Assembly: GCA_045631885.1 (NCBI GenBank)
Contig: JAZQVN010000039.1
Coordinates: 12,608-76,607 of the forward strand
Direction of reading: 5' to 3'
DNA length: 64,000 bases
Source: Bacilli bacterium
Lineage (GTDB): Bacteria; Bacillota_I; Bacilli_A; RFN20; CAG-826
Every line of letters begins with the position of its first letter. The stretch's first letter is position 1. Made by a program: the position numbers and the translations under genes. The notes below the pieces were generated by a model. It was given only the letters and a program-made list of their open reading frames with translations, had not been told where the DNA came from and did not search any database. Shown here in pieces: positions 8,881-44,542 of the stretch.

Positions 8881-8909
8881 TTGACATAGTCTTATATATA
8901 TTTAAAATG
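8881..8909 (+). promoter_or_regulatory. Candidate sigma70-type promoter, TTGACA-16-TAAAAT.
   Basis: The -35 element ttgaca is at 8881-8886 and the -10 element taaaat at 8903-8908. Confidence 0.4.
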
Positions 8910-8911
8910 AT

Positions 8912-8935
8912 AACGATTGCAACTAACGATTGCAG
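8912..8935. promoter_or_regulatory. Direct repeat AACGATTGCA x2 (spaced 4 nt) between the promoter and the RBS of HTH-glmM.
   Basis: The sequence aacgattgca-acta-acgattgca is a candidate operator. Each copy contains the palindromic core TTGCAA. Confidence 0.4.
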
Positions 8936-8945
8936 GAGGAAAATT

Positions 8946-15497: not shown

Positions 15498-16103
15498 ATG
15501 GATAAAATAAACCTTTATGTAGTGGACACTAGAAAACATACTTTTAGTGAACTTTTGTCGTACACCAAAATTAGTGACGAAGATTTAAAAACTTTAGACA
15601 AATTTCGCGTTTTAGAAGTGAAAAAAGAGAAGTTAGCATCTCTATATTTTAAACGTAAATATGTCGGAGAGTTTTCAATTAATGAAGACGGTAAACCCGT
15701 CTCTAAAAACTTGTTTTTCAATATCTCTCACTCCAAAGGAGTGGTGGTTATCGCTATCTCCAAGGAACACGAAATAGGTGTAGATATTGAAGTGATTAAA
15801 TCTAAAGACGAAGATTTAGTGAAATATGTCAGTAGTGAAGAAGAATATAAATTCATTAAAACCGAATTTGACTTTCTTTCTATTTGGACTAATAAAGAAT
15901 CTTTAGTCAAATGTTTAGGCACAGGCATTAAAAGCGATATTAAAAGTATTCCCGCTTTACCATTAAATGGTAAAAAGGAATTTAAAGGTGAAACATATTT
16001 TAGCAAGATAACTAAAGTTAATGATTCGATCATATCAATCACTATTAAAGATAAAAATGATTTTGACTTCGATTTAGTAATGGAGGAAGTTCATTATGAT
16101 TAA
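15498..16103 (+). CDS. 4'-phosphopantetheinyl transferase (Sfp-type).
   Basis: The motifs ISHSKG...GVDIE and FSIWTNKESLVKCLGTG (W/FxxKEA/SxxK) are present. It overlaps the NRPS start by 8 nt. Confidence 0.85.
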   Translation: MDKINLYVVDTRKHTFSELLSYTKISDEDLKTLDKFRVLEVKKEKLASLYFKRKYVGEFSINEDGKPVSKNLFFNISHSKGVVVIAISKEHEIGVDIEVIKSKDEDLVKYVSSEEEYKFIKTEFDFLSIWTNKESLVKCLGTGIKSDIKSIPALPLNGKKEFKGETYFSKITKVNDSIISITIKDKNDFDFDLVMEEVHYD

Positions 16104-19100
16104 AAAATCACCATTAAGTAAAAGTGAAGAAGGATTATATGTCTCTTCGTTAAATGGCGGAGATGCGTATAATCTCGCTAACACGATTAATCTTGGGAAA
16201 GACTTTACTGTCGAGCAAGTTCAAGAGGCTTTAAATAAAGTTGCTCTTGCTCATCCTTATTTGTTCACCATCTTAGGAGTGGACGAAGAAGGCAACATCT
16301 ATAAAGAACTAAAAGTCCAAGATATCAAACTCGAAGTTAAAGAAGTCAAAGAGCTTAAAATTGAATCACTTCCATATGAATTAACTAACTCTCCTTTATA
16401 TAGATTTAATCTATATAAACTAGATGGAAACTTGATTTTCTATTTTGATTTCCATCACTTGATTATGGATGGAACATCTTTAAAGATTTTTATTGATGAT
16501 TTCTTCCTCGCTTTAGAAGGTAAAGAGCTAGTTAAAGAAAGTAGTGATGCTTTCGATTTTGCGAATAAAGAAATTGAAATTAGAAATAGCGATGTCTATC
16601 AACAAGACAAAGCTTATTACGATAATCTTCTTTCTGGTGTAGAGACTGACTCCACACTCGTGGAAGATAAAGTTGAAGAAGCGGTTAGCTATGATAACAT
16701 CAGAGTCCCTTTAAAGATTAAAAATGACGAGGTGAAAAAACTCACCTCTAAAGAAGGAGTTAAAACTTCAACATTCTTCCTTGCAGCTTTTTCCTATTTA
16801 TTAACCAAGATAAATATGGAAAATGAAGCATTGTTCCTCACTGTTAATAACGGAAGAAATAAAGATGTCCTTCATTCTTTTGGTAGCTATGTTAAAACAT
16901 ATCCTTTATATATTTCATATCAAGATGATGAATCTGTTAGTGATTTATTAAAGAGAGTTAACGAACAAAACATTAATAATGTTTCCCATAATTCTTATTC
17001 ATTTATGGAATTATCCAAAGATTTAGGAATCGCTCCTAATATCTTATTTGCCTATCAAGGTGATTATTTCTATAAAGGAATGCTTAACGGTAAAGAAGTT
17101 ATTGTTAATCCATTATTAAGAAAAGATGGCAAAGAAAAACTCAGCATCGAATTACATAGATGTAATAATGATTTCATTATTTGGGTTGAATACCGTAGTG
17201 ATTTGTATAACAAAGAAACAATGGAACATCTTATTAAGATGTATGATTTAGCGTTAAAAGAATTACTAACTAAAGAAAAGATTATCGATATCTCCCTAGT
17301 GGATGATGAAGAAGAGAGATTATTAGAATCCTTCAATATAATTGATGCGCCTTATATTGAACCAAATAAGACAATCTTAGATGACTTTAATGAAGCGGTG
17401 AAGGAATTCCCAGATCACACCGCGGTGGTATTTAAAGATCGTCGTTACACATATAAAGAAGTCGATGTTATCACAAATAGAATTGCTAACCAATTAATTA
17501 AAATGGGGGCTCAAAAAGAAAAAGTCGTTTCTATTTTAATCAATAAATCTGAATATATTGTTCTAGCATCTCTTGCAGTTATTAAATCTGGCGCGGCCTA
17601 TCAACCGTTAGATCCATCTTATCCACAAGAAAGATTGAACTTCATGGTCAACGACTCCAAAGCCATCATCTTAATTAGAGATGATAATTTAGAAGGTCTA
17701 ATTACTGAATTTAAAGGACAAGAATTATTAGTCTCATCATTATTATCATTTAAAGATGATAGTGAGATTAAATCTAAACCAGCAAAAGATGATTTATTCA
17801 TCATGCTTTATACTTCTGGTTCTACTGGGATTCCGAAAGGTGTCCAATTAGAACACGGTAACATCTTTGCCTTTGTGAGATATTATCGCCAAGAATTTAA
17901 GATTAATGAGAATAGCAGAATCACCGCTTACGCGTCATATGGTTTTGATGCGGATATGATGGACTTATATCCTACTATTACAAGTGGTGCAACTTTATAT
18001 ATCATCCCTGATGAAATGAGATTAAATCTCGTTGAGTTAGGTGAATACTTTAATGAAAACGGTATCACTCAAGCATTTATTACCACCCAAGTTGGTCGAC
18101 AATTCGCCAGTGAAATCGAAATTAAAACTTTAAAACATTTCCTTGTCGGAGGAGAAAAACTCGTTCCAATGAATCCTCCAAAAGGATATAACTTCTATAA
18201 CGTTTATGGTCCAACCGAAGGTACGGTTTACTGCACCCAACAAATCGTTGATAAGCTCTATAATAGAGTCCCGATTGGTAAATCTTTAAGTGACTATAAA
18301 GTTTATGTTTTAGATAAAAACAAGAAGAGATTACCAGTCTTAGTAAGTGGCGAACTTTATATCTCTGGACCTCAAGTTGCGAGAGGCTATTTAAATAGAG
18401 AAAAAGAGAATACGGAAGCCTTCCTTAAAAACTGGTTCACAGATGAAAAAGACTATCAAAGGCTCTATAAAACTGGCGATATTGTAAGATTTTTACCTGA
18501 TGGCACAATTGACTTTATCGGTAGAAAAGATGGCCAAGTTAAGATTAGAGGATTCCGTGTCGAATTATCCGAAGTCGAAAGAATTATTCGTGAATTTAAA
18601 GATATTAAAGACGCGACAGTCAAAGACTTTACTGACCCAAGCGGAGTCAAATATATATGCGCTTATATCGTGAGTGATAAGAAGATTAATGTCGATGAAT
18701 TAAACGAGTTTATCTTATCCAAAAAACCTCCATATATGGTTCCGGCATACACAATGCAAATCGATAAGATTCCTCTTAACCAAAACCAAAAAGTGAATAA
18801 GAGAGCTTTACCAGAACCAGAACTCAAAGTGGAAGAAAAGATCGCTCCAAGAAATGAAACTGAGCAAGCCATTTTTGATATTGTTAAAGATGTCGTTGGA
18901 CACGATCAATTCGGTGTCACCAATGATTTATTTGAAATTGGTTTAACCTCAGTTTCCTCAATCAGATTAACGATTCTTCTTTCTAAGAAGTTTGATAAAA
19001 CCGTCGAAAACGCGGATTTAAAAGATAACTCCACGGTTGAGGGTTTAGCCAAATTTTTAGTTAATAAAGAAGAAGATAAGACTTATGAAATCTTAAAAGA

Positions 19101-22100
19101 ATACCCAATTAGTAAAACTCAAGAAGGTATCTTCGTTGAATGTGTTTCTAAAGTCGATTCGACAACATATAACATTCCATTCTTATTCAAATTAGATAAG
19201 AACATCGATATCAATAAATTAAAAGAATGCTTATTAAAAGTTATTGATAACCACGAATATATCAAGACCACTTTATTTATGAACGAAGATGGTGATATTA
19301 GAGCGAGAAGAGAAAACGTTCCAAGCGTGGTCACAATTATCGAAGGTGAAATTAATAAAGATAAATTAATTAGACCATTTAAGATTTTAGATAATCCTTT
19401 ATATCGTGTTGAGATTTATAAAGGCAAACAAGATAACTACTTATTCTTAGATTTACATCACATTATTTGTGATGGTACTTCTGAAGCCGTTATCTTATCT
19501 GATTTAAATAAAGCCTATCATAATGAAGAATTAGTGAAAGAAGAATTCACAGGCTTTGAAGTGGCTTTAAAAGAAAAAGAAGACTTAGCTAGTGACAAAT
19601 TAGAAAAAGCGAAATCGTTCTATCAAGGTGTCTTAAAAGATATTGATGGTGAATACGTTTTAAGAAAAGATTTAAAGACCAGCAAAGAAAGTAAACTTAA
19701 ATCAATTGATTATCCATTAGATATTGACATGGGTAAACTTAATGCCTTTATCAAAGATAACAAGTTAACATTTAACGCTTTCTTTAACTTTGCATTTGCT
19801 TTCTCATTATCAAAATTCATTTATCGTAATGATAGCTTATACACAACGATTTATAGTGGAAGAAATTCTTCTAAATTAGCTAATACTGTTTCTATGTTAG
19901 TTAAGACTCTTCCTGTTTATATCAAATATGAAGAAGAAGACAAAGTCTTAAATAAATTAAAAGAAACAAAAGATTTATTAGAGGGATTAGAAGAAAACGA
20001 TTTATATTCATTCGCGGATATCGTTAATGATTATGGCATTAACGCAGATATGATGTTTGCCTATCAAGGTGATGATTTCCATTTCGATTCTATCGGAGGA
20101 TATCCAGTTGAAGCGGTCTTAATGGAAAGCGATGATGCAAAGAGTGATTTCTCGATCGACGTTTTCTTAGAAAACGGCAAATATCGTATCCATTATGAAT
20201 ATGATGAAAGTTTATATAACGAAAACACCATCGCGTCATTTGAACGCTTATATCAATTAGTCCTTAATGAATTACTAATTAAGTCACAAATTAAAGACAT
20301 TAATTTATTAAGTGATGTTGATAGAAAGTTATATGAAGAATTTAATGATACTGAAGAAGATATTCCAAATATTACCTTCAATAAACACATTGAAAGACAA
20401 GCAAGAGAAAACCCAGATAAAGTCGCGGTTATTGCGAAAAATGGTAGATACACTTATAGAGACTTTAACGCTGCGGCGAATAAAGTCGCTCATAGTTTAG
20501 TTGATAAAGGTGTCAAATTAGCAGACCCAATCGTTATGCTAATGCCTCGTATTGCGGAAGCTTATGTTGTTAGACAAGGTATCATCAAGAGTGGTGGCGC
20601 ATTTGTTCCAGTTGATCCTAAATATCCAGATGATCGTGTTGAATATATCATCACTGACTCTGGTTCAAAGATTTTAATTTCTACGAAAGAAGTTATTGAA
20701 TCTAAGAAAGAATTAATTAAAAAGACTGGTATCATCGCTTTAGATGTCTTTGATTTACTTAAGAGTGACAAAGTCGATAATTTAGATTTAGATATTCCTC
20801 AATCCTCCATGTGCTATGTCATTTACACATCGGGTAGTACAGGAAAACCAAAAGGCGTGATGATTTCTCATCGTAACTTAGTTAACTATGTGACTGATGG
20901 TAAGAATTACGCGACAGAAGAATATCGCATGATTAAAGGTGGCGCGGTCGGCTGTTCCTTTGCCTCATTATCATTTGATGCTTCTTTACAAGAAGAATGT
21001 ATCGTTTTATCACATGGCTTCACCGCGGTTATCGCTAGTGAAGAAGAGATTGAAAACCCATTATTATTAGCCAAAACATTAAAAGAAAATAAAGTAAACA
21101 TTATGTTTATGACTCCATCATTTGTCTCTAACTTATTAGACATTGATGAATTTGTGGATGCATTAAAGAACTTCCAAGTTCTTGATATGGGCGCGGAAGT
21201 TGTCCCGATTGAATTATGTAATCGCTTAAGAGAATTAGGCGTCACCGCGGTTATTAATAATGGTTATGGTCCAACAGAAACCACGATCACTGCGACATAT
21301 TCCACAGTGAAAGATGAATATATGACAATCGGTAAACCAATTGCAAATATCAAAGCTTACCTATTAGATAAGGCGGGTCATATCTTACCAATTAATGCGA
21401 TTGGTGATTTAACTCTCGCAGGCGAGGCCACGGGTATTGGTTATTTAGGTATGCCAGAAAAGACAAAGCAAAGCTTTATTGAACTAAACGGCATGCGTGC
21501 ATATCGTTCAGGTGACTTAGCGAGATATAACTCCGAAGGCAATATTGAATTCTTCGGTAGATTAGATAATCAAGTTAAGTTAAGAGGATTACGTGTTGAA
21601 CTAGATGAAATTGAAAAAGTTCTTAACTCTTATCCAAGTGTGAAGAGAAGTATCATCTTAGTGAAAACTAATCCAGTTGATGGAGATTATCTCGCTGCGT
21701 ATTTTGTGGCCTCGACGATGATTGATAAAGATGATTTAACCGCGCATATGGCGAAATCATTAACTCCTTATATGATTCCAAAGGTGATGATGCAATTAGA
21801 TAAATTCCCATTAACACCAAACGGAAAGATTGATAAGAAAGCCCTTCCAGAAATTGAAGTGAAAGCTTCTAATAAAGTTAGAAAAGAAGCGACTAATGAA
21901 TTAGAAAAACAATTAGTGAAATTATTCTCTAAAGCATTAGGTCAAGAAAATATTGGTATTGATGAAGACTTCTTTGAATTAGGCGGGACCTCATTAAGTG
22001 CCTCTAAGATTGCGATGCTTGCATTAAATGCAAACTTACCAATTTCTTATGGCGATGTCTTTGAATATCCAAGCGTTTTAGAAATGGAAGCCCATATTAA

Positions 22101-23325
22101 ATCATTAAATAACGAAGTGGTTGAAGAAGTTACTGAAGAAGTTAATCTCGATAATAGTGGACTTGCATCCCTTAAAGAAAATGTTGTCGCGAACGTCAAT
22201 GAAGTATGTATTGAAAAAGACTTCGATAACGTCTTATTAACAGGTTCCACTGGCTTCTTAGGAATCCATATCTTAAAAGAATTAATTAATCAAAAGAAAC
22301 ATGTTATCGCTTTAATTAGAGGCGGTAAACTCAATCCGCTTGATCGTTTACAAGGTTTACTCGCGTATTATTTTGATTCTCCATTAGATGAAGAAGTGAA
22401 AGAATATGTGACAGTTGTAGACGGTGATGTCACTGATGAAACATTATATGATAAACTCAAAGAGTTTAAGTTTGATTTAATCATTAACTCCGCAGCGATT
22501 GTTAAACACTTCTCTAATGATGACATTATTGAAAGAGTTAATGTCGGTGGTGTGAAAAACTTAATTGAAATTGCCAAGAAGAAAAATGTCAGATTGGTGC
22601 AAATCTCCACATTATCTGTCGCTGGTGAAAATATCGATGATAAGTTCGATGCGACATTTAGAATGAAAGAGAATATGTTAGACTTTGGTCAAGATGTCTC
22701 AAATAAATATGTCCATTCTAAATTCAATGCAGAAAAAGCGATATTAGAGGCGTGCCTTGATGGATTAGACGGCAAAGTCATCCGTGTTGGTAACTTAATG
22801 AGTAGAAATAGCGATGGTGAATTCCAAGCTAACTCTATTACTAACGGTTTCATGAGAGATTTAAAAGGATATGTTGCTTTACATAAATTCCCAGTTAACT
22901 CCATGGATGTTGAAATCGACTTCTCCCCAATTGATGAAGTCGCAAAAACCATTATCTTATTATCCAAAACTGATAAGAAATTTACTGTCTTCCATTCAGC
23001 GAACTCACACATGGTTCAAATGGGTGACATCATTTATGTCTTAAATGAATTAGGATTCGAAATTGAAGTAGTCAGTGATGATGACTTCTTGAAGTCAATG
23101 AAAGAAATGATGATGGATGAAAGTAAGAGTATGTTAGTCTCATCATTAATCTCATATTCATCAAGTGATATGCATACGCATTCATTCATCCTTTCTGATA
23201 ATGAATTCACTAATAAAGCTTTATATCATTTGAGTTATAAATGGCCAATTACCGATTATCAATATTTAAGAAAGGCGATTGAATCACTTGATACATTAGG
23301 ATTCTTTGATAGGACGGACTTATGA
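16096..23325 (+). CDS. Two-module nonribosomal peptide synthetase, C-A-T-C-A-T-R, with a terminal thioester reductase.
   Basis: Module 1 has a C domain (HHLIMDGTS), an A domain (LYTSGSTGIPKGV, YGPTEGT, YKTGDIVRF) and a T domain. Module 2 has a C domain (HHIICDGTS), an A domain (YTSGSTGKPKGV, YGPTETT) and a T domain (FFELGGTSLSA). The R domain is an NAD(P)-binding Rossmann fold (LLTGSTGFLGIHIL). The stop is TGA. Confidence 0.9.
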   Translation: MIKKSPLSKSEEGLYVSSLNGGDAYNLANTINLGKDFTVEQVQEALNKVALAHPYLFTILGVDEEGNIYKELKVQDIKLEVKEVKELKIESLPYELTNSPLYRFNLYKLDGNLIFYFDFHHLIMDGTSLKIFIDDFFLALEGKELVKESSDAFDFANKEIEIRNSDVYQQDKAYYDNLLSGVETDSTLVEDKVEEAVSYDNIRVPLKIKNDEVKKLTSKEGVKTSTFFLAAFSYLLTKINMENEALFLTVNNGRNKDVLHSFGSYVKTYPLYISYQDDESVSDLLKRVNEQNINNVSHNSYSFMELSKDLGIAPNILFAYQGDYFYKGMLNGKEVIVNPLLRKDGKEKLSIELHRCNNDFIIWVEYRSDLYNKETMEHLIKMYDLALKELLTKEKIIDISLVDDEEERLLESFNIIDAPYIEPNKTILDDFNEAVKEFPDHTAVVFKDRRYTYKEVDVITNRIANQLIKMGAQKEKVVSILINKSEYIVLASLAVIKSGAAYQPLDPSYPQERLNFMVNDSKAIILIRDDNLEGLITEFKGQELLVSSLLSFKDDSEIKSKPAKDDLFIMLYTSGSTGIPKGVQLEHGNIFAFVRYYRQEFKINENSRITAYASYGFDADMMDLYPTITSGATLYIIPDEMRLNLVELGEYFNENGITQAFITTQVGRQFASEIEIKTLKHFLVGGEKLVPMNPPKGYNFYNVYGPTEGTVYCTQQIVDKLYNRVPIGKSLSDYKVYVLDKNKKRLPVLVSGELYISGPQVARGYLNREKENTEAFLKNWFTDEKDYQRLYKTGDIVRFLPDGTIDFIGRKDGQVKIRGFRVELSEVERIIREFKDIKDATVKDFTDPSGVKYICAYIVSDKKINVDELNEFILSKKPPYMVPAYTMQIDKIPLNQNQKVNKRALPEPELKVEEKIAPRNETEQAIFDIVKDVVGHDQFGVTNDLFEIGLTSVSSIRLTILLSKKFDKTVENADLKDNSTVEGLAKFLVNKEEDKTYEILKEYPISKTQEGIFVECVSKVDSTTYNIPFLFKLDKNIDINKLKECLLKVIDNHEYIKTTLFMNEDGDIRARRENVPSVVTIIEGEINKDKLIRPFKILDNPLYRVEIYKGKQDNYLFLDLHHIICDGTSEAVILSDLNKAYHNEELVKEEFTGFEVALKEKEDLASDKLEKAKSFYQGVLKDIDGEYVLRKDLKTSKESKLKSIDYPLDIDMGKLNAFIKDNKLTFNAFFNFAFAFSLSKFIYRNDSLYTTIYSGRNSSKLANTVSMLVKTLPVYIKYEEEDKVLNKLKETKDLLEGLEENDLYSFADIVNDYGINADMMFAYQGDDFHFDSIGGYPVEAVLMESDDAKSDFSIDVFLENGKYRIHYEYDESLYNENTIASFERLYQLVLNELLIKSQIKDINLLSDVDRKLYEEFNDTEEDIPNITFNKHIERQARENPDKVAVIAKNGRYTYRDFNAAANKVAHSLVDKGVKLADPIVMLMPRIAEAYVVRQGIIKSGGAFVPVDPKYPDDRVEYIITDSGSKILISTKEVIESKKELIKKTGIIALDVFDLLKSDKVDNLDLDIPQSSMCYVIYTSGSTGKPKGVMISHRNLVNYVTDGKNYATEEYRMIKGGAVGCSFASLSFDASLQEECIVLSHGFTAVIASEEEIENPLLLAKTLKENKVNIMFMTPSFVSNLLDIDEFVDALKNFQVLDMGAEVVPIELCNRLRELGVTAVINNGYGPTETTITATYSTVKDEYMTIGKPIANIKAYLLDKAGHILPINAIGDLTLAGEATGIGYLGMPEKTKQSFIELNGMRAYRSGDLARYNSEGNIEFFGRLDNQVKLRGLRVELDEIEKVLNSYPSVKRSIILVKTNPVDGDYLAAYFVASTMIDKDDLTAHMAKSLTPYMIPKVMMQLDKFPLTPNGKIDKKALPEIEVKASNKVRKEATNELEKQLVKLFSKALGQENIGIDEDFFELGGTSLSASKIAMLALNANLPISYGDVFEYPSVLEMEAHIKSLNNEVVEEVTEEVNLDNSGLASLKENVVANVNEVCIEKDFDNVLLTGSTGFLGIHILKELINQKKHVIALIRGGKLNPLDRLQGLLAYYFDSPLDEEVKEYVTVVDGDVTDETLYDKLKEFKFDLIINSAAIVKHFSNDDIIERVNVGGVKNLIEIAKKKNVRLVQISTLSVAGENIDDKFDATFRMKENMLDFGQDVSNKYVHSKFNAEKAILEACLDGLDGKVIRVGNLMSRNSDGEFQANSITNGFMRDLKGYVALHKFPVNSMDVEIDFSPIDEVAKTIILLSKTDKKFTVFHSANSHMVQMGDIIYVLNELGFEIEVVSDDDFLKSMKEMMMDESKSMLVSSLISYSSSDMHTHSFILSDNEFTNKALYHLSYKWPITDYQYLRKAIESLDTLGFFDRTDL

Positions 23326-25103
23326 GTTTAAAAAGAAATTCCAAATTAATTGATCGTAAATTCATCCAATATTTGATTCCTTCAATATTGATGATTTTTG
23401 CGATGCAGTTTGGCTCATTAGTCGATGGCATTTTTGTTGGTAACTTTATCGGTAGTGATGCCTTAAGTGCGACAGCCTTAGTTATACCAATTTTATATAT
23501 TATCCAAATCCCTGGATTCGCTCTCGGAGTGGGTGGATCAATTGTCGTCGCTAATTTGTTAGGAAAAAGAGATGTCGATAAATCGAAAAAAGTATTTACG
23601 ATGTGCTTTATCCTCGGCATGGGTTTATCAAGTATATTCGCAATTCTCTCGTTCTTTGTTTCTGAACCTTTGGCAAGATTGTTTGGAGATACATTGCTCG
23701 GGTATTGTACAGATTATGTCTTTATCTACTTATTAACTGACCCAATTATCGCTGCAGCGTTATTAATTGGTTCATTTATGGCGGTTGATAATAATCCAAA
23801 ACTATCTTCTATCTTCTTTATCGTCGCTAATGTCGCAAAAGTCGGTTTAGAAATCTTATTCATCCATCAAGATTTATTAAATTGGGGGATGAAAGGAGCG
23901 GCTTTCTCTACCGCGGCAGGTTATCTCGTAGGCATGATTACCGTGATATTCTATATCTTTAGCAAAGAGAGACACCTCGGATTCACATTTAAACTACGTG
24001 AAAATGGCTTCAAAGAAACATTTAAAGCGAGTAGCACATCCGCGCTTAATCTTTTATTAACAGCGATCCAGATGTTAATCGTCAATATTGTCATTGGTCA
24101 AGTCATCACATCGATGAGAGATTTAAATGCTTATGGATTAGTGGCTAATATGGTCTTTGTTTTTGACTTATTATGTGGTGGTGTGCAAAACGTAATTCCA
24201 AATATTTGTGGGATTTTTTACGGGGAAAAAGATTACTATTCACTTAAAAGCGTTACGAGAAAAATATATTTAATCAACATAATTTTGACAGCGTTTATTA
24301 CCGCGGCAATTGCGATATTCCCGAACATTTACGCGGTGGCGTTTGGCTATAATGACTTCACCGATTTTAACCAAGTTGCTTTATTTATAAGAATCTATTT
24401 AATCTCATTTATCCCATATGAAATTAATAAGTTCTCGATGAATTATTACCCCACAGTGGATAAGAACGTGCCATCTCTTGTTACTGTTTTACTAAGAGAG
24501 GCAATCATCGTTTTACCTGTTACATTAGTCTTATTAAACGTTTATGGATTAATGGGTTATTGCGCAGCTTGTGCGATTACAGAAGCATCCACAGTCATCA
24601 TCACTTATATTTTTATTTACATTTATCAAAAGGTGAAAAAGAAAGGCACACGTGGCATCTTCATGATGGAAGATTTATCATTTGAATCATTTGATGTTTC
24701 TTTAACTAATGAAATGGAAAACGCCTCAGTGATTTCTGAAGACTTAACTGATTTTGCTTTATCAAAGAATGTTCCTAATAGAGAAAGTCAATTAATTGGT
24801 TTAGCTAGTGAAGAGATGGTGGCTAACATTGTCACATTTGGTTATAAACGCAAAAAGAGAAACTATATTGACGTTAGTTTAAAGGTCAACGAAGACACAT
24901 TAATCTTAAGAATTAGAGATGATGGAGTGCCTTTTGATCCGACTAAATATGAATTCGATAATACCGAGGATTATTCCACAAGTGGAATCGAATTAATGAA
25001 AAACATTACTGATAAAATGACGTATATGCGTATACTTAATTTAAACAACACGATTTTTGAAATCAAATATAAGGGAGGTTTGGAAAATGGAAATCCTAAT
25101 TAA
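23322..25103 (+). CDS. MATE-family efflux transporter fused to a C-terminal GHKL (RsbW/SpoIIAB-like) anti-sigma-kinase domain.
   Basis: The MATE N-terminus (LIDRKFIQYLIPSIL...) has about 12 TM helices. The C-terminal ~140 aa have an N-box-like EEMVANIVTFGY and a G1-box-like LRIRDDGVPFD. The ATGA overlap with the NRPS stop implies coupling. Confidence 0.7.
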   Translation: MSLKRNSKLIDRKFIQYLIPSILMIFAMQFGSLVDGIFVGNFIGSDALSATALVIPILYIIQIPGFALGVGGSIVVANLLGKRDVDKSKKVFTMCFILGMGLSSIFAILSFFVSEPLARLFGDTLLGYCTDYVFIYLLTDPIIAAALLIGSFMAVDNNPKLSSIFFIVANVAKVGLEILFIHQDLLNWGMKGAAFSTAAGYLVGMITVIFYIFSKERHLGFTFKLRENGFKETFKASSTSALNLLLTAIQMLIVNIVIGQVITSMRDLNAYGLVANMVFVFDLLCGGVQNVIPNICGIFYGEKDYYSLKSVTRKIYLINIILTAFITAAIAIFPNIYAVAFGYNDFTDFNQVALFIRIYLISFIPYEINKFSMNYYPTVDKNVPSLVTVLLREAIIVLPVTLVLLNVYGLMGYCAACAITEASTVIITYIFIYIYQKVKKKGTRGIFMMEDLSFESFDVSLTNEMENASVISEDLTDFALSKNVPNRESQLIGLASEEMVANIVTFGYKRKKRNYIDVSLKVNEDTLILRIRDDGVPFDPTKYEFDNTEDYSTSGIELMKNITDKMTYMRILNLNNTIFEIKYKGGLENGNPN

Positions 25104-25383
25104 ACACGAAGATGCGATGATCATCTCCTTAAAAGGTAGATTAGATACAGTCACATCAGTCGAATTTCAAAAAGCAGTCGCTGAAGAAGAAATCAAAGAA
25201 TCTTTAGTCATCGTTGACGCGAAAGAATTAGAGTATATTTCTTCTGCCGGCTTACGCGCTTTATTATCACTTAAAAAACAATTAGTCCCAGAGGGCAAAG
25301 GTTTAGAAATCCATAATCTTAACCCTGTTTGCCAAGAAGTGTTCAAAGTCACAGGCTTTAACAATATTTTAACCGTTAAATAA
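25087..25383 (+). CDS. STAS-domain protein (anti-sigma-factor antagonist, SpoIIAA/RsbV-like).
   Basis: A GGAGG RBS precedes the start. The conserved phosphorylatable region is YISSAGLRALLSL. It is about 100 aa long. Confidence 0.75.
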   Translation: MEILIKHEDAMIISLKGRLDTVTSVEFQKAVAEEEIKESLVIVDAKELEYISSAGLRALLSLKKQLVPEGKGLEIHNLNPVCQEVFKVTGFNNILTVK

Positions 25384-25385
25384 TT

Positions 25386-27506
25386 ATGAAAGTTTCTATC
25401 AGGGTCAAAATAGTTGCTCTAGGTGCGATTATTTCCGCTTTAACAATGGCGGTTTCTTTGTTCGTGAGTGATTATCTCTTCCGCATGAATAGTCAAAATG
25501 AACTTTTAGATAATGTTTATTTATGGCTTGATAGTTTAGAAGATGATTATCTTAATCATGAATATAGCGAAACTTATCGCGCGAGAGTGGAAGATACTTA
25601 TAACTATGTTAATGATATTTATAAAACTGGCGTTGAAGACCCTGAAGAATTTGAAAGCTTTGACGCGAAAAAACAATATTTTAAAAATAGATACAAATGG
25701 GTGTACACAATCGATGGCATAGGTATGTATTGGCAAAGTGAAGAAGAAAGAACATTTAGAGCTAATTATGACGATTTGTCAGAAACATTAAGAAACGCCG
25801 CGGTCGGCAAAAATGCTGCCAGTGTCTACTTAGTTTATTTCGATGATACGAATAATCAGATGATCTTCCTCGCGGATGATTCATCCTATATCGCAAATTA
25901 TAAATTTGAATATCATTTACCTGGTTCTCATGTCACAGTCACAAATAGACCACAAAAAGAAGAAAAGCATTATTCGTTTAACTATAACGGTCTCATGACA
26001 AAATGTATCCCAATTGGAACCCCGGCAAATAGCGACGACACAATCGCTTATATCATGATAGAGTACAATTTTGATGCGATTGATGCTGAAGCAAGAACAA
26101 TATTCTTACTTGAGTTATTGACCCTATCATTAACATATATTGTTTTATTAGTAATGTTCTTTATTTTATCTCATTTCATGGTGACAAGAAACGTCATCAA
26201 ATTATCCAAATCATCCCAAAAATTTACTGATAGTTTAAAGAGCAAAAAAGAACTAGTCGTGGAAGATCCACATATTAAATCGAGAGACGAAATTAGAGAC
26301 TTGTCTAACTCTTTCGTTGCGTTAGAAAATGAAATTATCAACTATGTTGATATCATTACTAAAGAAGCGCAAGAAAAAGAAAAATTCAACGCTGAACTTT
26401 CTATCGCTAGCAAGATTCAACTAGACTCATTACCAAATTCTAATTACGCAGATAAGAACCTTAACTTAAAAGCGTTTATTAAGACCGCGAAAGAAGTCGG
26501 TGGTGATTTCTATGATTATTTCTATTTGAACGATAATCAATTGCTCATCACAATATGTGACGTCTCTGGTAAAGGCGTCCCAGCGGCCTTATTTATGATG
26601 AAAGGTAAGGAATTAATTAAATCATTTATTAAAACTGATTCATCATTGCCGGATGCGATTTATAAAGCAAATAACGAATTAGTAAAGAATAATTATGAAA
26701 ACTTATTCATCACTGCGTTTGTCGCGATTATTGATTTTGCTAAACACGAAATTAAATACGTTAACGCGGGTCATGAAAAACCATATTTGTTAACTAATGG
26801 TGAAGTTGAGAAGTTAGATGGCATTTCTAACTTTGTTCTAGGTGGAGAAAGTGGCTTCCCATATGTTGAAGAAAAACATTCATTTAACCCAGGAGATAGA
26901 ATCTTCTTATTTACTGATGGATTAAATGAAGCGATTAACTCTAAAGAAGAAGAATTCTCTTATTCCAGAATAGAAGAAGTCTTAAAAGATAATATCAACT
27001 CATCCATTAATGAAATCATTGAAAATATGAACATCGCGCATAACAAGTTCGTCGCTGGAGAAGATGTCTTTGATGATGTTACGATGTTATTAATTGAAGC
27101 CAGTAAAAACGAACTGCACCTTTCTTATCAAAATGAAGATGTGACAATCATCGAACAAATCGTTGACCAATTCGAGAAAACATTCGCTGGTTTATCCGCG
27201 AAAGTTAAATCAGAAGTTGGCATCATTATTGATGAGATTGTGAATAACATTATCTCTTATTCCGAAGTGGAGAATCTCGAGTTAGATATTGATTTCAAAC
27301 TTGAAAAAAATGAATTAGTCATTATCTTTAAAGATAATGGTAAGAAATTTGATCCATTACAAAAAGAAGATAAATATTTAGAAGAATATAGCGATGATAT
27401 TGAAACCGGTGGCTTTGGCATTGGCTTAGTTAAAACATTATCTACTTCACAAAAATACGAATATAAAAATAAACGCAACATCTTAATGATTAGAAAAGAT
27501 ATCTAA
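25386..27506 (+). CDS. PP2C-type (SpoIIE/RsbU-like) phosphatase with an N-terminal membrane/sensor region and a C-terminal GHKL kinase-like domain.
   Basis: There is an N-terminal TM helix and a central TM helix. The PP2C core is GGDFYDYFYL...ICDVSGKGVPAALFM...FTDGLNEA. The C-terminal DEIVNNIISYS...IIFKDNGKKFDP resembles an RsbW-like ATPase. Confidence 0.7.
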   Translation: MKVSIRVKIVALGAIISALTMAVSLFVSDYLFRMNSQNELLDNVYLWLDSLEDDYLNHEYSETYRARVEDTYNYVNDIYKTGVEDPEEFESFDAKKQYFKNRYKWVYTIDGIGMYWQSEEERTFRANYDDLSETLRNAAVGKNAASVYLVYFDDTNNQMIFLADDSSYIANYKFEYHLPGSHVTVTNRPQKEEKHYSFNYNGLMTKCIPIGTPANSDDTIAYIMIEYNFDAIDAEARTIFLLELLTLSLTYIVLLVMFFILSHFMVTRNVIKLSKSSQKFTDSLKSKKELVVEDPHIKSRDEIRDLSNSFVALENEIINYVDIITKEAQEKEKFNAELSIASKIQLDSLPNSNYADKNLNLKAFIKTAKEVGGDFYDYFYLNDNQLLITICDVSGKGVPAALFMMKGKELIKSFIKTDSSLPDAIYKANNELVKNNYENLFITAFVAIIDFAKHEIKYVNAGHEKPYLLTNGEVEKLDGISNFVLGGESGFPYVEEKHSFNPGDRIFLFTDGLNEAINSKEEEFSYSRIEEVLKDNINSSINEIIENMNIAHNKFVAGEDVFDDVTMLLIEASKNELHLSYQNEDVTIIEQIVDQFEKTFAGLSAKVKSEVGIIIDEIVNNIISYSEVENLELDIDFKLEKNELVIIFKDNGKKFDPLQKEDKYLEEYSDDIETGGFGIGLVKTLSTSQKYEYKNKRNILMIRKDI

Positions 27507-27507
27507 T

Positions 27508-29952
27508 ATGAAAGCTAAACACACCGACTATTCTTTAAACCTCATTGACCAATTAACTTTAGAAGAGAAGATTGCTTTAGTCGCGGGGCATGATTTCATG
27601 TACACGAACGCTATACCGAGATTTAACATACCTTCAATTAGGATGAGTGATGGCCCTCATGGTTTAAGAGTGCAAGAACCAGGCGCGATTGAAGTGACTG
27701 GCACATCTATCGCAACATGCTTTCCAACTGCAGGGGCAACTTCTAATAGCTTTAACCCTGAACTATTAAAAGAAATGGGAATAGCGATGGGAGAAGAAGC
27801 TAGATACTACGGCATCGACATCATCTTAGGACCTGGAGCTAATATTAAAAGAAATCCATTGTGTGGTCGTAATTTCGAATATTTCAGTGAAGATCCTTTC
27901 CTCGCTGGTAGATTAGGGGCAAAAGAAGTTGAAGGCATTCAATCCCAAGGGATTGGAACATCTTTAAAACACTTTGCATTTAACGGTGAAGAAAACCATC
28001 GTTTCATGGGTAATTCTATTGTCGATATGCGCGCAGCGAGAGAAATCTATTTAAGACAATTTGAATATATTATTAAAAACGCCCATCCAGAAACAGTGAT
28101 GAACGCATATAACAAAGTGAATAACTTCTATTGCAGTGAAAGTAAATGGTTATTAACTGATGTCTTAAGAACTGATTGGGGCTTTGATGGTTTGGTCATG
28201 ACTGACTGGGGCGCGACCCACGACAGAATCGGAGCGATTAAAGCCGGAAACGATTTAGAGATGCCAGGCGACACAGTTATCTGCCGTAAATGGATTTTTG
28301 ATGCGATTAATAACGGTGAATTAGATATCAAAGAATTAGATGAAAGAGTCTTAACAGTTCTCGATTTAGTTTCTAAACATATTAATAAAAACAAATTAGA
28401 AGAATTAGACTGGGACAAACATCATGATTTAGCAAGAAGAATTGCGGAAGAATCCGCGGTCCTTCTTAAAAACAACGGTTTATTACCTTTAAATAAAGAA
28501 GAAAGACTTTGTATTGTTGGAGAATTATTCTCCAAGATGAGATATCAAGGCGCAGGTTCTTCGATGATCACATCGAGTAAATTAACAACATGCAAAGACG
28601 CCTTTGATAACCACGAAATTAATTACGTGTTTTTCAAAGGATATAAAGATAGTGAAAAAGAACCATCCGAAGCCTTACTTAAAGAAGCGGTGGAGGGTTC
28701 AAAAGAATTTGATAAAGTTATCGTCTTTATTGGTTTAACTGACTATGAAGAAACAGAAGGCGGAGATAGAGATACGATGGCGTTACCGAGTAATCAATTA
28801 GCCTTAATTGATGCCTTACTTGAAAATAACAAAAAAGTCATCGTTGTCTTAGCGGGTGGTTCAGTAGTAGAACTTCCTTTCGCTGATAAAGTCGAAAGCA
28901 TCCTCCATATGTTCTTACCAGGACAAAATGGTGGAGAAGCTACTTATAACATCTTATTCGGTAATGTTAACCCAAGTGGTAGACTCTCTGAGACTTGGCC
29001 AATTAGTTATCAAGACGTTCCATTTGGTGATGAATTCGGTAATAGAAAGAACCTACCATATAAAGAATCAATCTATGTCGGATATCGTTATTATCTAACG
29101 ATGAATAAAGAAGTAAGATATCCATTTGGTTATGGTCTATCATACACAACATTCGATTATAGTGGGTTAGAACTAAAAGAAGAGAAAGAGAAGATTAAAG
29201 TCAGCTTAACGGTGAAGAATACAGGTAAAGTTGATGGAAAAGAAACTGTCCAAATCTACGTTAAAGGTCCAGAAAGTAGTTTCTTTAAGCCATTAAGAGA
29301 ATTAAAAGGTTTCACAAAAGTATTTTTAAAGGCCGGACAATCTCAAAAAGTCGAAGTTGTTATCAGTAAAGATGATCTTAAATATTGGAACGTAAAAGAC
29401 AATGAATTCTCCTTAGAAAAAGGCGAATATGTCTTCCAAGTCTGCCGTAACTCAAGAGACATCGCCTTAGAAAGTAAATTAACTCTTGATGGAGAGAATC
29501 TTGATAATATTTACGAAAAAGATGTGCAAATTGCGTATAAAAACTTTGAAATAGATAATTTAATCTTTGAAAAGTTATATGGTGATAAGATTCCAGAAGA
29601 TCCAAATACCAAACCGATTACACTTGAAAGTAGGTTCGATGAACTAAAGCAAACATTTATGGGTAGAATCTTATTTAAAGCTGTCGTTGGTGCTATGGGC
29701 AAAGATATGAAGAAAGCGAAAAAACTCCCTGAAGGAAGCGAAAGAGATAACCGCTTAAAATCAGCGATGGCGATGCAAAAAATGATGTTGACAAACTCCT
29801 TAATAACGATGTCTATGTCAGCGGGAACAATGTTCCCTTATAACCTTGCTGAAGGATTCAAGGAATTAGCGAATGGTCATATATTTAAAGGTATCGGTCA
29901 TATGATGAAAAAGGTTAAAGCTCCTAAATTACCAATTAATAAAAAGAAATAG
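27508..29952 (+). CDS. GH3 beta-glucosidase (BglX-like) with an FnIII-like domain and an unusual ~120-aa basic C-terminal extension.
   Basis: The GH3 N-domain motifs are RMSDGPHGLR, GFDGLVMTDWGA and KHFAFNGEE. The C-domain and FnIII-like region follow. The basic tail (KKAKKLPEGSERDN...KKVKAPKLPINKKK) is not typical of GH3. Confidence 0.8.
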   Translation: MKAKHTDYSLNLIDQLTLEEKIALVAGHDFMYTNAIPRFNIPSIRMSDGPHGLRVQEPGAIEVTGTSIATCFPTAGATSNSFNPELLKEMGIAMGEEARYYGIDIILGPGANIKRNPLCGRNFEYFSEDPFLAGRLGAKEVEGIQSQGIGTSLKHFAFNGEENHRFMGNSIVDMRAAREIYLRQFEYIIKNAHPETVMNAYNKVNNFYCSESKWLLTDVLRTDWGFDGLVMTDWGATHDRIGAIKAGNDLEMPGDTVICRKWIFDAINNGELDIKELDERVLTVLDLVSKHINKNKLEELDWDKHHDLARRIAEESAVLLKNNGLLPLNKEERLCIVGELFSKMRYQGAGSSMITSSKLTTCKDAFDNHEINYVFFKGYKDSEKEPSEALLKEAVEGSKEFDKVIVFIGLTDYEETEGGDRDTMALPSNQLALIDALLENNKKVIVVLAGGSVVELPFADKVESILHMFLPGQNGGEATYNILFGNVNPSGRLSETWPISYQDVPFGDEFGNRKNLPYKESIYVGYRYYLTMNKEVRYPFGYGLSYTTFDYSGLELKEEKEKIKVSLTVKNTGKVDGKETVQIYVKGPESSFFKPLRELKGFTKVFLKAGQSQKVEVVISKDDLKYWNVKDNEFSLEKGEYVFQVCRNSRDIALESKLTLDGENLDNIYEKDVQIAYKNFEIDNLIFEKLYGDKIPEDPNTKPITLESRFDELKQTFMGRILFKAVVGAMGKDMKKAKKLPEGSERDNRLKSAMAMQKMMLTNSLITMSMSAGTMFPYNLAEGFKELANGHIFKGIGHMMKKVKAPKLPINKKK

Positions 29953-30299: not shown

Positions 30300-31562
30300 A
30301 TGAGTATAAATGTTATATTCAATATTACTGTGTGTCTTGTTGGCATCATCTTTTTGACTATCCATGCAGTTGATACAGGACTTAAAAAGAATAAAAGAAA
30401 AGATGAAATTAATTTATTAATCTTCATCATTTTTACAATTGTCCACTTCGCTACATATTTAACATTTACTGTTATCAAAATGTATTACACCAGTGATCCA
30501 TTTATCATTGGCTTCTATACAACGTTCTATATCATGAATAATGTTGAGCTCATTTTGCTCTTCATATATACGATTTCATATGTCTCGATTAGTAAGAAAG
30601 TCAAAACAATCACATCAATAATCAATTTCAGCATATTTGGTATTTATGTACTTTTAGACATTATCAACATTTTTACCCATATGTTCTTCTCCGCGGAAAA
30701 TGGTGTATATGTGAGAAGCCCAGGTATGCTTTTCTCCCAAACTTATCAATTCATTGCTTTCATCATCGTTTTCATATTGACAGTGTTTAATAAGAAACTT
30801 AATAAAACCGAGAAAATTGCTTACTCATTATATTGTGTGTTGCCATTTATCGCGATTATCATCCAAAACTTATTACCAGGATACGCGATTGCTTATTTCT
30901 CAGTTATCATTTCAATCGAAATCTTGTTCTTGTTTGTTAACGTGAAGAAAAACCTCGAGTTAGTTAATGAAGAAAAGAAGAGCAGAGAAACGGAAATTAA
31001 ACTCATGATGTCACAGATTCAACCGCACTTCATTTATAACACACTTTCGTCAATTTCTACGCTTATTGAAATCAATCCAAAAAAAGCTCAAGAAGCCCTT
31101 GATACATTTACTGAGTATTTAAGAGCAAATCTTTCATCTTTATCAAAAACAGGACTCATTAATTTTGAAGATGAATTAAGACATATTGTGACTTATATCT
31201 CTTTAGAAAAAATTAGATTTGAGGAGAGATTGAATGTAGTTTTTGATGTAAAAGTCACAGATTTTCTTGTTCCTCCTCTTAGCATTCAACCGATCGTTGA
31301 GAACTCTGTTAAACATGGTATTTTACAGAAAATTGAAGGTGGAACAATTTCGATTAAAACATATGAAACTAACGACGCATACTTCGTTGAAATTGCGGAT
31401 GATGGAGTGGGTTTTGATATTGATAAAATTAACCTCACTTCTGGTGACCATATCGGTATCAATAATGTCCGTTATCGCTTGTCTACAATGTGCAATGGTG
31501 AGATGCATATCGATAGTGAAATTGATAAAGGCACTAAGATAGTAGTAAAATTATATAAGTAG
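30300..31562 (+). CDS. Sensor histidine kinase, LytS/YehU-like (His_kinase plus HATPase_c), with a polytopic N-terminus.
   Basis: There are about 6 TM helices. The phosphoacceptor region is QIQPHFIYNTLSSIST. The ATPase G-boxes are IADDGVGFD and GIGINNV. Confidence 0.8.
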   Translation: MSINVIFNITVCLVGIIFLTIHAVDTGLKKNKRKDEINLLIFIIFTIVHFATYLTFTVIKMYYTSDPFIIGFYTTFYIMNNVELILLFIYTISYVSISKKVKTITSIINFSIFGIYVLLDIINIFTHMFFSAENGVYVRSPGMLFSQTYQFIAFIIVFILTVFNKKLNKTEKIAYSLYCVLPFIAIIIQNLLPGYAIAYFSVIISIEILFLFVNVKKNLELVNEEKKSRETEIKLMMSQIQPHFIYNTLSSISTLIEINPKKAQEALDTFTEYLRANLSSLSKTGLINFEDELRHIVTYISLEKIRFEERLNVVFDVKVTDFLVPPLSIQPIVENSVKHGILQKIEGGTISIKTYETNDAYFVEIADDGVGFDIDKINLTSGDHIGINNVRYRLSTMCNGEMHIDSEIDKGTKIVVKLYK

Positions 31563-31563
31563 T

Positions 31564-32331
31564 ATGAAAGTATTATTAGTTGATGATGAAAAGCTCCAAT
31601 TAACAAGACTAGAATCCTCTGTTAAGAAGGTTTTAACTGATGCAGAGCTATTTTGTTATACCAATCCTATCGCAGCGATAGAAGAAAATAAGAATAATAA
31701 GTTCGACATCGCCTTTTTAGATATCGAAATGCCAAAACTAAATGGTGTTACCTTAGCGAAAATGCTCAAAGGTACTAATCCTTTAATAAATATTATCTTT
31801 GTTACCGCTTATGATAAGTTCGCTTTAGAAGCAATGCGTATACGCGCGAGTGGATTTGTCACAAAACCAGTCAACGAAGATAAAGTTCGCGAAGAAATCG
31901 AAGCGTTACGTTATCCAATTGGTATGAAACAAGAGAAAAAGATCCAAATTAAGTGCTTTGGTAACTTTGAAGTGTTCCATAATGGCGAACCAGTTCAATT
32001 CTTATATCGTAAATCAAAAGAATTATTCGCTTATCTAGTCGATAGAGAAGGTTCAGCGGTCAACATCAACGAACTGAACGCTGTTCTTTGGGAAGAAGAT
32101 CACAAATCATACCTCAGGAATCTCATCAGTGATATCCAAAAGACACTCAAGAGTCTCGACGCTAGTGAAGTATTCATCAAGAAGCACAATGAATGCTACA
32201 TTGACGTCAACACAATCGATTGCGACGCCTATGAATACAAGAGAAATAACCCTGAAGCGGTAAGGATGTACCGTGGAGAGTATATGGAACAGTATTCTTG
32301 GCCAATGTTTAATGCTGACGACGAGTATTAG
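31564..32331 (+). CDS. Response regulator: receiver domain plus a C-terminal winged-helix (OmpR/SARP-like) DNA-binding domain.
   Basis: The receiver features are LLVDDE, DIAFLDIEMP and FVTAYD. The C-terminus is FGNFEVFHNGEPVQF...ELFAYL...LW. Confidence 0.7.
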   Translation: MKVLLVDDEKLQLTRLESSVKKVLTDAELFCYTNPIAAIEENKNNKFDIAFLDIEMPKLNGVTLAKMLKGTNPLINIIFVTAYDKFALEAMRIRASGFVTKPVNEDKVREEIEALRYPIGMKQEKKIQIKCFGNFEVFHNGEPVQFLYRKSKELFAYLVDREGSAVNINELNAVLWEEDHKSYLRNLISDIQKTLKSLDASEVFIKKHNECYIDVNTIDCDAYEYKRNNPEAVRMYRGEYMEQYSWPMFNADDEY

Positions 32332-34318: not shown

Positions 34319-34331
34319 GGGGGCGAAGACA

Positions 34332-36698: not shown

Positions 36699-36700
36699 AT

Positions 36701-44173: not shown

Positions 44174-44214
44174 TCATCAATCGTAAAAGACAAGTAGTAA
44201 AAGGAGGCAAGATT

Positions 44215-44523: not shown

Positions 44524-44542
44524 TTTTTGATTCAGTAATTTT

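Follow-up and report, generated by a model that had tools for sequence, protein, structure and literature searches.

A MATE exporter fused to an anti-sigma-fold GHKL domain and encoded with STAS and PP2C proteins beside a nonribosomal peptide synthetase: a candidate sigma-independent partner switch in Firmicutes

Partner switching is known chiefly for the control of sigma factors, as in the SpoIIAB-SpoIIAA-SpoIIE and RsbW-RsbV-RsbU/P systems of Bacillus. Partner switches that operate without a sigma factor are also known, namely SiaABCD, HsbR/HsbA, SypE/SypA, and Rv1364c. Here, we analyzed a 64-kb window of DNA from a Bacilli bacterium (contig JAZQVN010000039.1 of assembly GCA_045631885.1; the window is the whole 64,000-nucleotide stretch, and coordinates refer to it unless a related locus is named). 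The window carries a nonribosomal peptide synthetase (NRPS) gene followed by genes for a MATE exporter with a C-terminal GHKL domain, a single-domain STAS protein, and a membrane-bound PP2C phosphatase with a second GHKL domain. The most economical reading of this arrangement is phospho-controlled gating of the exporter via the STAS protein, in which both the binding and the gating are steps that we infer.

The locus shares its three protein families with the Bacillus switches, of which SpoIIE is likewise membrane-bound, and SpoIIAB/RsbW and SpoIIAA/RsbV are the closest solved structures to the GHKL and STAS domains described here. It differs from them in having no sigma factor and in having two GHKL domains rather than one: the first, which has no G2 box, is covalently part of the transporter, whereas the other is fused to, or encoded beside, the phosphatase. 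In its logic, a partner switch acting on a non-sigma target, the locus resembles SiaABCD of Pseudomonas aeruginosa, in which the phosphatase SiaA and the kinase SiaB set the phosphorylation of SiaC, and SiaC regulates an enzyme (PMC7647112, PMC8457831). SiaA is also the best NCBIfam match of the phosphatase protein in the window, but with a score of 50.9 bits against a cut-off of 700 bits the protein is no orthologue of SiaA. Furthermore, the effector of SiaABCD, a diguanylate cyclase, has no GHKL domain, whereas the presumed effector here is a MATE transporter with its own GHKL docking domain, and the phosphorylation site of SiaC is Thr68, whereas a serine occupies the classical SpoIIAA position here.

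Rv1364c of Mycobacterium tuberculosis, HsbR, CrsR, and SypE are cytoplasmic proteins with PAS or receiver inputs. The input in our locus is instead a two-pass membrane sensor of putative Cache-like type, and none of those four proteins is paired with a transporter bearing a second GHKL domain. The SLC26/SulP family and MlaB of the MlaFEDB system provide precedents for the modulation of a membrane transporter by direct contact with a STAS domain. In SulP proteins the STAS domain is fused to the transporter and MlaB binds the ABC ATPase MlaF, but neither system includes a kinase/phosphatase switch or a GHKL receiver; the arrangement found here is mirrored, in that the transporter bears the GHKL domain and the STAS protein is free. 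ClbM, the MATE transporter encoded in the colibactin cluster, has a PDB chain of 431 residues that aligns to the membrane domain only. To our knowledge, ClbM has no regulatory C-terminal domain, nor is any other MATE transporter known to us to possess a cytoplasmic domain dedicated to regulation.

Sigma-less switches, fused PP2C-kinase proteins, STAS domains touching transporters, and MATE transporters in NRPS or polyketide synthase clusters are thus all known already, and the new feature of this locus is the transporter-fused GHKL domain, not the missing sigma factor. A preliminary description of the locus, made from the DNA letters, had stated that no MATE-RsbW fusion was known to its author. 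In agreement with this, we found in the literature searched no account of a MATE transporter that carries a fused anti-sigma-fold GHKL domain, comes with cognate STAS, PP2C, and kinase proteins, is conserved in three Firmicutes classes, and is tied to a single type of NRPS cluster. Both halves are nevertheless noted in database names: JGI names one relative 'Na+-driven multidrug efflux pump/anti-sigma regulatory factor (Ser/Thr protein kinase)', and NCBI names the fusion proteins 'ATP-binding protein' or 'hypothetical protein'.

The exporter gene occupies positions 23322-25103 on the plus strand and encodes a protein of 593 aa. Its membrane domain (aa 1-445, 23322-24656) matched Pfam MatE (PF01554) in two stretches (E = 4.3e-25), and these two MatE repeats give rise to 12 transmembrane helices, placing the protein in the MATE family of the MOP superfamily with a putative role in cation-coupled efflux of small molecules. 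The same ORF (open reading frame) matched HATPase_c_2 (PF13581) at aa 463-569 (E = 1.4e-11; 45 bits versus a gathering score of 27.4), within a C-terminal GHKL domain of the SpoIIAB/RsbW type that spans aa 455-582 (24684-25067). AlphaFold2 modeled the whole protein with a predicted local distance difference test score (pLDDT) of 92.8 and a predicted template modeling score (pTM) of 0.90. In this model, aa 8-439 are helical throughout, forming the 12-helix bundle of a MATE transporter, and are followed by a 15-residue linker and a beta-alpha-alpha-beta-beta-lid-alpha-beta-beta domain at aa 455-582. The pTM and the length of the linker are consistent with a fixed arrangement of the GHKL domain relative to the membrane domain.

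When the full model was compared with the PDB using Foldseek, the top 50 matches were exclusively MATE/MOP structures. The C-terminal domain itself has the Bergerat ATP-binding fold of the anti-sigma-factor subclass of GHKL proteins; its fold agrees with those of the active kinases SpoIIAB and RsbW, and its closest sequence models are the anti-sigma factors SpoIIAB, RsbW, and UsfX. It belongs to the SpoIIAB/RsbW/SiaB class, characterized members of which bind a STAS-type partner. The preliminary description had assigned to the MATE protein a C-terminal GHKL domain with N- and G1-boxes, and this assignment was borne out by both the profile match and the fold.

We then surveyed the distribution of the fusion. 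A word-indexed search returned 455 relatives, and both Pfam domains were present in a single protein of ~580-593 aa in 120 of the 120 best 90%-identity clusters (62-100% identity). An exhaustive HMMER search against 1.84 billion cluster representatives, using only the C-terminal 150 residues, yielded 2174 matches at E ≤ 1e-3 and 216 at E ≤ 1e-10; 61 among the top 150 matches were 540-620 aa long, with the match at approximately residues 450-590. Among 66 distant representatives that we aligned (20-54% identity to the query), MatE was detected in all 66 and HATPase_c_2 in 61. Finally, a scan of one genome per species across 185,579 species, using a 12-sequence alignment, identified a relative in 222 species genomes.

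The carriers include metagenome-assembled genomes (MAGs) of rumen Erysipelotrichaceae, Bacilli, and Acholeplasmatales, as well as Christensenella, Ruminococcus, Oscillospiraceae, Lachnospiraceae, and Selenomonadaceae. The 222 genomes belong to Erysipelotrichaceae, Clostridia, and Negativicutes, and three classes of Firmicutes are represented. The nearest relatives come from rumen Erysipelotrichaceae MAGs, and cultured carriers are Petralouisia muris, Eubacterium sp. 14-2, Enterocloster bolteae, bacterium D16-51, and Eubacterium plexicaudatum ASF492.

This distribution bears on the concern that the fusion might be an assembly or gene-calling artefact joining a MATE gene to a separate RsbW-like gene; a sequencing or assembly frameshift had been named in the preliminary description. 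We found nothing in favor of such an origin and regard it as almost inconceivable. The ORF is unbroken in the window, AlphaFold2 gives a single protein with the high pTM quoted above, and over 120 independent 90%-identity clusters, drawn from many assemblies, show the same single-ORF layout, as do complete or isolate genomes. A frameshift or misassembly is ruled out by these clusters, the distant representatives, and the isolate genomes.

The next gene (25087-25383, plus strand, 98 aa) encodes the single-domain STAS protein of the RsbV/SpoIIAA type (Pfam STAS, PF01740, E = 2.7e-14), confirming that a STAS gene immediately follows the exporter gene. The protein scored 57.6 bits with the NCBIfam model ant_ant_sig, above the cut-off of 53.45, and its profile matches to SpoIIAA, RsbV, and TM1442 had E values of 1e-11 to 1e-16. 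In the PDB it matched 4HYL, SpoIIAA (1TH8_B), and RsbV (6M36_B) with the serine aligned; it also matched the MlaB-type STAS protein 7CH8, and the NCBIfam mlaB model matched weakly. Ser53 (nt 25243-25245), within the motif YISSAGLR, lines up with the phosphorylated Ser58 of SpoIIAA (DSSGL), so that the protein combines a single-domain STAS fold with a conserved serine at the SpoIIAA Ser58 position. Across 73 homologues, conservation is at least 95% for both serines, the Ala, and the Leu of this motif and at least 80% for its Tyr, Ile, and Gly. Ser53 is the predicted phosphorylation site.

The third gene (25386-27506, plus strand, 706 aa) encodes a protein in which, as had been proposed, an N-terminal membrane sensor region is followed by a PP2C phosphatase domain and a second GHKL domain. 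The sensor half extends to aa 345 (25386-26420) and comprises a predicted first transmembrane helix, a putative Cache/PDC-like domain, a predicted second transmembrane helix, and HAMP-like helices. Hydrophobic segments within aa 1-32 and 236-271 flank an outside domain of ~200 aa (aa ~33-235), which is a putative Cache/PDC-like sensor; no other part of the system evolves as fast as the sensor region (mean p-distance 0.76). The PP2C domain (aa 383-571, 26532-27098) belongs to the SpoIIE family of Ser/Thr phosphatases (PF07228, E = 1.1e-39) and contains the Asp motifs of its catalytic domain. The motifs GGDFYD, DVSGKG, TDGLNE, and FDD are conserved in 63 homologues and are read as the metal-binding motifs of PP2C. 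Among solved structures, Rv1364c, the two-component response regulator chains 3ES2/3EQ2 (RssB by NCBIfam), and SpoIIE come closest to this domain. The second GHKL domain, of the RsbW type, lies at aa 584-704 (27135-27497; HATPase_c_2, E = 2e-13), and its best PDB match is RsbW (6M36).

To compare the two GHKL domains, we aligned 90 MATE-borne, 46 PP2C-fused, and 14 stand-alone domains together with SpoIIAB and RsbW. The MATE-borne domains keep the N-box EExxxN and the G1 box RDDGxPF[D/N]P (RDDGxPFDP in the window protein), both of which line up with the corresponding boxes of SpoIIAB. In 66 diverse fusions, E497, E498, N502, D533, and F538 are at least 90% conserved, and G535 is invariant in a 12-sequence subset. 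The G2 box, in contrast, reads SGIEL in the window protein ('sGIxL' in relatives), compared with SGMGF in SpoIIAB and GGLGL in RsbW; the GxG pattern is gone, and the single remaining Gly is itself variable. The PP2C-linked domain retains the pattern as GGFGIG, and a canonical G2 box (GGfGi or pGGLGiy) is kept in the 46 fused and 14 stand-alone domains.

The G2 glycine-rich box is expected to be necessary for the function of the ATP lid in GHKL enzymes. Because this box is missing, the MATE-borne domain is more likely to be mainly a nucleotide-binding docking domain, a pseudokinase or weak kinase, than the main kinase, and the PP2C-linked domain is likely to be the working STAS kinase. The description of the MATE-borne domain as RsbW-like was therefore correct for the N- and G1-boxes; it did not extend to the G2 box, and the two GHKL domains are not equivalent.

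On these grounds we propose, with about even confidence for and against, a sigma-independent partner switch built around the NRPS-associated MATE exporter, in which the STAS protein docks on the GHKL domain of the exporter and gates export. The exporter is taken as the target of the STAS protein because it is the sole component besides the kinase that carries a domain of the STAS-partner class. In the proposed sequence of events, the Cache-like domain would sense an extracellular ligand and set the balance between the PP2C phosphatase and the canonical kinase. This balance would determine the phosphorylation of Ser53, in the way that SiaC is controlled by SiaA/SiaB or RsbV by RsbU/RsbW. STAS protein in its unphosphorylated form would then dock on the exporter GHKL domain, as SpoIIAA does on SpoIIAB, and docking would alter the conformation or the oligomeric state of the MATE domain. 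As an outcome, export of the NRPS product would be switched post-translationally with gene expression unchanged. Binding of the STAS protein could either activate or inhibit export, the sequence being compatible with both directions.

The conservation pattern of the MATE-borne domain can also be read the other way round, with that domain as the true STAS kinase, run by transport or substrate load, so that the exporter would act as a sensor ('transceptor'). The STAS protein, along with the PP2C-GHKL protein (itself an RsbU-RsbT-like pair), would then pass the signal on to a target other than the exporter, for instance to NRPS activity or to some regulator encoded far away. We consider this unlikely, although several features favor it: Glu498 and Asn502 of the N-box and the RDDG of the G1 box are nearly invariant in the 66 diverse fusions, the fold agrees with those of active kinases, the MATE-borne domain is the slowest-evolving regulatory domain (mean p-distance 0.475, compared with 0.675 for the other GHKL domain), and its motifs are intact even where STAS and PP2C genes are missing. 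However, its G2 box is reduced to one variable Gly while the PP2C-linked domain keeps its own, and we found no conserved downstream output gene in related loci. In the characterized fused PP2C-GHKL proteins known to us (Rv1364c, HsbR, and SypE), both activities target the same STAS partner, which also speaks against this reading. Moreover, a second MATE::GHKL paralogue in Lachnospiraceae loci has lost the N-box Asn and the Asp-Asp of the G1 box (RYSGKEFNP) while the domain is still present. The four loci with this second paralogue (L065, L073, L075, and L078; e.g., L078 12842-14626) also hold genes for a GH3-family (PF03321) acyl-amido synthetase and a glyoxalase-like protein between the module genes.

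The exporter gating reading places the switch within a biosynthetic gene cluster, in which the genes are closely packed. A 4'-phosphopantetheinyl transferase (PPTase) gene (15498-16103, plus strand; Pfam ACPS, E = 4e-10) opens the conserved block and is followed by the gene for a two-module NRPS of 2409 aa (16096-23325, plus strand) with the architecture C-A-T-C-A-T-R (Pfam Condensation x2, AMP-binding x2, PP-binding x2, and NAD_binding_4). The NRPS stop codon and the MATE start codon share ATGA. The STAS start codon lies 17 nt within the 3' end of the MATE gene and is preceded by a strong Shine-Dalgarno sequence, AAGGGAGG, 8 nt upstream of the ATG, and only 2 nt separate the STAS stop codon from the ATG of the PP2C gene. 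A scan of the plus strand for terminator-like sites found few in total and none at any gene junction. The gene packing suggests that the five genes from PPTase to PP2C are co-transcribed, in line with the operon-like organization that the preliminary description had reported.

The best NCBIfam model for the NRPS is AusA (aureusimine synthetase), with 1121 bits under a cut-off of 2500 bits, and by its domain content the enzyme is of the AusA/dipeptide-aldehyde type with a terminal reductase. Its product is probably a reactive peptide aldehyde; characterized relatives of two-module, reductase-terminated clusters produce dipeptide aldehydes that inhibit host proteases. For dipeptide-aldehyde NRPS clusters of gut Clostridia, PMC8518294 and PMC12327764 cite Guo et al. 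2017 and Schneider & Balskus 2018. We tie the present cluster to these published ones because of its NRPS architecture, its match to the AusA model, and these secondary citations.

To examine whether the gene set is maintained, we called ORFs in 84 non-duplicate related loci (designated by L numbers) and classed them by iterated hidden Markov models seeded from the window proteins; 81 of these loci had upstream DNA, 45 had full 10-kb flanks, and 63 had at least 3 kb of downstream DNA. An NRPS ORF of ~2400-3000 aa ends at the start of the MATE::GHKL gene in at least 72 of the 81 loci, and an NRPS occurs anywhere in the locus in 77 of the 81, the clear exceptions being L053, L077, L081, and L082. 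The suggested co-occurrence of the fusion with NRPS clusters thus proved to be the rule. STAS and PP2C genes are both present in 37 of the 45 fully flanked loci and both absent from the other 8, with neither ever found alone, and the STAS gene directly follows the MATE gene in 37 of 63 loci. In many related loci, a homologue of the PPTase is found on one side or the other of the NRPS/MATE pair. The conserved gene set consists of the PPTase, NRPS, MATE::GHKL, STAS, PP2C, and kinase, and the flanks outside this block vary between loci.

Gene fusions vary among these loci as well. The PP2C and kinase are fused in Erysipelotrichaceae-type loci, whereas in Ruminococcaceae, Selenomonadaceae, and Lachnospiraceae they are separate genes, with a GHKL protein of 124-147 aa beside a sensor-PP2C protein of ~640 aa (Pfam-checked in P. 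muris). One relative, P0127 (786 aa), has the order MATE-GHKL-GHKL, its second GHKL domain belonging to the type of the stand-alone kinases and having a canonical G2 box. Another protein, P0384 (819 aa), joins STAS, PP2C, and GHKL in a single ORF, in which the junction may reflect read-through of the STAS stop codon. The linkage to the NRPS, the joint presence of STAS and PP2C, and the kinase fusion variants give strong support to MATE::GHKL, STAS, PP2C, and kinase as a predicted functional unit.

These counts also bear on a different possibility, namely that the MATE-borne GHKL domain is independent of the STAS/PP2C/kinase trio and serves as a dimerization or ATP-sensing module tying export to the energy state, with the trio acting on another target, for example the NRPS, the PPTase, or a distal one. 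It gains from the 8 of 45 loci that carry MATE::GHKL and an NRPS without STAS and PP2C and in which the GHKL motifs are intact, from the tighter linkage of MATE::GHKL to the NRPS (at least 72/81) than to STAS/PP2C (37/45), and from the occurrence in L004 of a similar trio of STAS, STAS-APH, and PP2C-GHKL proteins without a MATE gene. However, the domain is of the SpoIIAB/RsbW/SiaB class, in which characterized members bind STAS proteins, the STAS gene comes next after the MATE gene and overlaps it in 37 of the 63 loci, and P0127 fuses a stand-alone-type kinase straight to MATE::GHKL. We consider such independence improbable, a shade more so than a kinase role for the domain.

The trio without a MATE gene consists of a small STAS protein, a 384-390-aa fusion of STAS to an aminoglycoside-phosphotransferase-type kinase (STAS-APH), and a 620-aa PP2C-GHKL protein, and was observed in L004 (14358-17688; the same in L005), L019 (16210-), L031 (3-2700), and L049 (2131-5500). 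In L004 it adjoins a radical-SAM/SPASM gene and a C39-peptidase ABC exporter, resembling a cluster for ribosomally synthesized and post-translationally modified peptides. Two of the loci without STAS and PP2C, L020 and L021 (12030-13925), encode a 631-aa protein without a Pfam match after MATE::GHKL. In Eubacterium sp. 14-2, L081 (8477-17700) represents a variant with no NRPS within 10 kb, located downstream of hydrogenase genes, with the gene order DUF3089, MATE::GHKL, PPTase, STAS, GH3-family synthetase, methyltransferase, PP2C, and stand-alone GHKL.

The presence of all three classical partner-switch components raises the question of a sigma factor. The preliminary description had noted none nearby, and our scan of ORFs of at least 100 aa likewise detected no sigma factor across the 64-kb window. 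No recurrent sigma-factor family was found among 195 non-redundant unassigned flanking ORFs of the related loci, a search of the flanking DNA in genomes that are mostly incomplete MAGs. The sole sigma-factor ORFs near any of the 84 loci are L069 15671-16192 and L082 5214-5738 (minus strand), both of the extracytoplasmic function (ECF) type with 173-174 aa, and each lies beside an ORF that may encode an anti-sigma factor. With only these two ECF-type ORFs, a nearby sigma factor was rejected as the switched partner. The canonical four-part switch is thus represented here by its kinase, STAS, and PP2C parts without the sigma factor, and the sigma inhibition typical of the RsbW/SpoIIAB family has no visible target in the window or recurrently in related loci. 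The same 195 ORFs included no conserved DNA-binding or other output protein alongside the module, and a GGDEF gene was found neither in the window nor among the recurrent families of related loci.

One could still suppose that MATE::GHKL acts as an anti-sigma factor anchored in the membrane and holds a distally encoded sigma factor of the sigma-B/F type, with the STAS protein as anti-anti-sigma factor, so that the module would regulate transcription, possibly that of its own cluster. Its fold and its closest models, the anti-sigma factors SpoIIAB, RsbW, and UsfX, are what such a role would call for, as is the complete set of switch components. However, no sigma gene occurs among the ORFs scanned in the window, and the two among the flanking ORFs are of ECF type, one of them on the opposite strand, and we therefore rate this role as quite improbable.

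We return to the gating of the exporter by the STAS protein. A more specific version, in which the exporter is gated by the phosphorylation state of the STAS protein via its built-in anti-sigma-fold pseudokinase and in which the kinase and the exporter GHKL domain additionally form an RsbW-like heterodimer that assembles the whole machine on the exporter, is put forward tentatively, at somewhat less than an even chance. The heterodimer is suggested because P0127 carries the two domains in tandem and because the partial correlation between them (0.31) is the highest in a mirror-tree analysis, although weak. In that analysis, distance matrices from 36 loci indicated that all domains are co-inherited (r = 0.73-0.94), and the partial correlations were 0.15 for STAS and MATE-GHKL, 0.23 for STAS and kinase, and 0.31 for MATE-GHKL and kinase, all of them weak.

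Several points weigh against the gating of the exporter. First, the distance-matrix correlations cannot tell the partners apart. Second, the near-invariant N-box Glu/Asn and G1 Asp-Gly of the MATE-borne domain form a pattern that fits ATP binding and perhaps hydrolysis, so that the domain could be a real kinase. Third, 8 of the 45 fully flanked loci have no STAS or PP2C gene within 10 kb while all MATE GHKL motifs are intact; coupling is therefore not obligatory in cis, and either the MATE-borne domain has a function free of a cis-encoded STAS protein or its partners are encoded elsewhere in the genome. Fourth, the NRPS product is assumed to be the substrate of the MATE exporter from gene adjacency alone.

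Beyond the conserved block, a GH3 glycoside hydrolase gene (27508-29952) starts 1 nt after the PP2C stop codon and appears to be co-transcribed. It was rejected as a member of the module, being absent from the related loci examined. Further downstream, a LytS-type histidine kinase and a response regulator (30300-32331, plus strand; Pfam His_kinase PF06580, HATPase_c, and Response_reg) may constitute the transcriptional regulator of the cluster, although their membership in the module is uncertain. The C-terminal ~130 aa of this response regulator have no Pfam match. Similar pairs flank the NRPS block in L004 (60-2131), L010, L012 (14225-16300), and L034 (7105-9100), upstream in some loci and downstream in others, and most loci lack the pair. 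A second LytS-type histidine kinase (56817-58703, minus strand) is paired with an HTH_3-receiver response regulator, in which the N-terminal position of the helix-turn-helix domain is an unusual domain order.

The region at 32726-50871 contains conjugation genes, including those for a type IV secretion system coupling protein (34293-36698) and a TraG-like P-loop ATPase (46660-49323), and among them lies a gene for a 2490-aa protein with weak Calx-beta/BiPBP_C matches (36701-44173). The NRPS block thus adjoins a putative integrative conjugative element. Upstream of the cluster, a 558-aa ORF (8907-10583) carries an HTH_3 domain (aa 26-74) N-terminal to a complete phosphoglucomutase, to be explained either by a fusion of an unusual kind or by a start codon called too far upstream.

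If the proposed reading is true, partner switching would extend to the direct control of a transporter, and MATE pumps would gain a regulatory mechanism not described so far: in hundreds of Firmicutes from gut and rumen, a valve controlled by a signal would release protease-inhibiting peptide aldehydes. Through its fast-evolving Cache-like domain, the module could time the release of peptide aldehydes according to an extracellular ligand. The cultured carriers Petralouisia muris, Eubacterium plexicaudatum ASF492, Eubacterium sp. 14-2, and Enterocloster bolteae make this hypothesis directly testable, and the identity of the signal might help to elicit products from such clusters.

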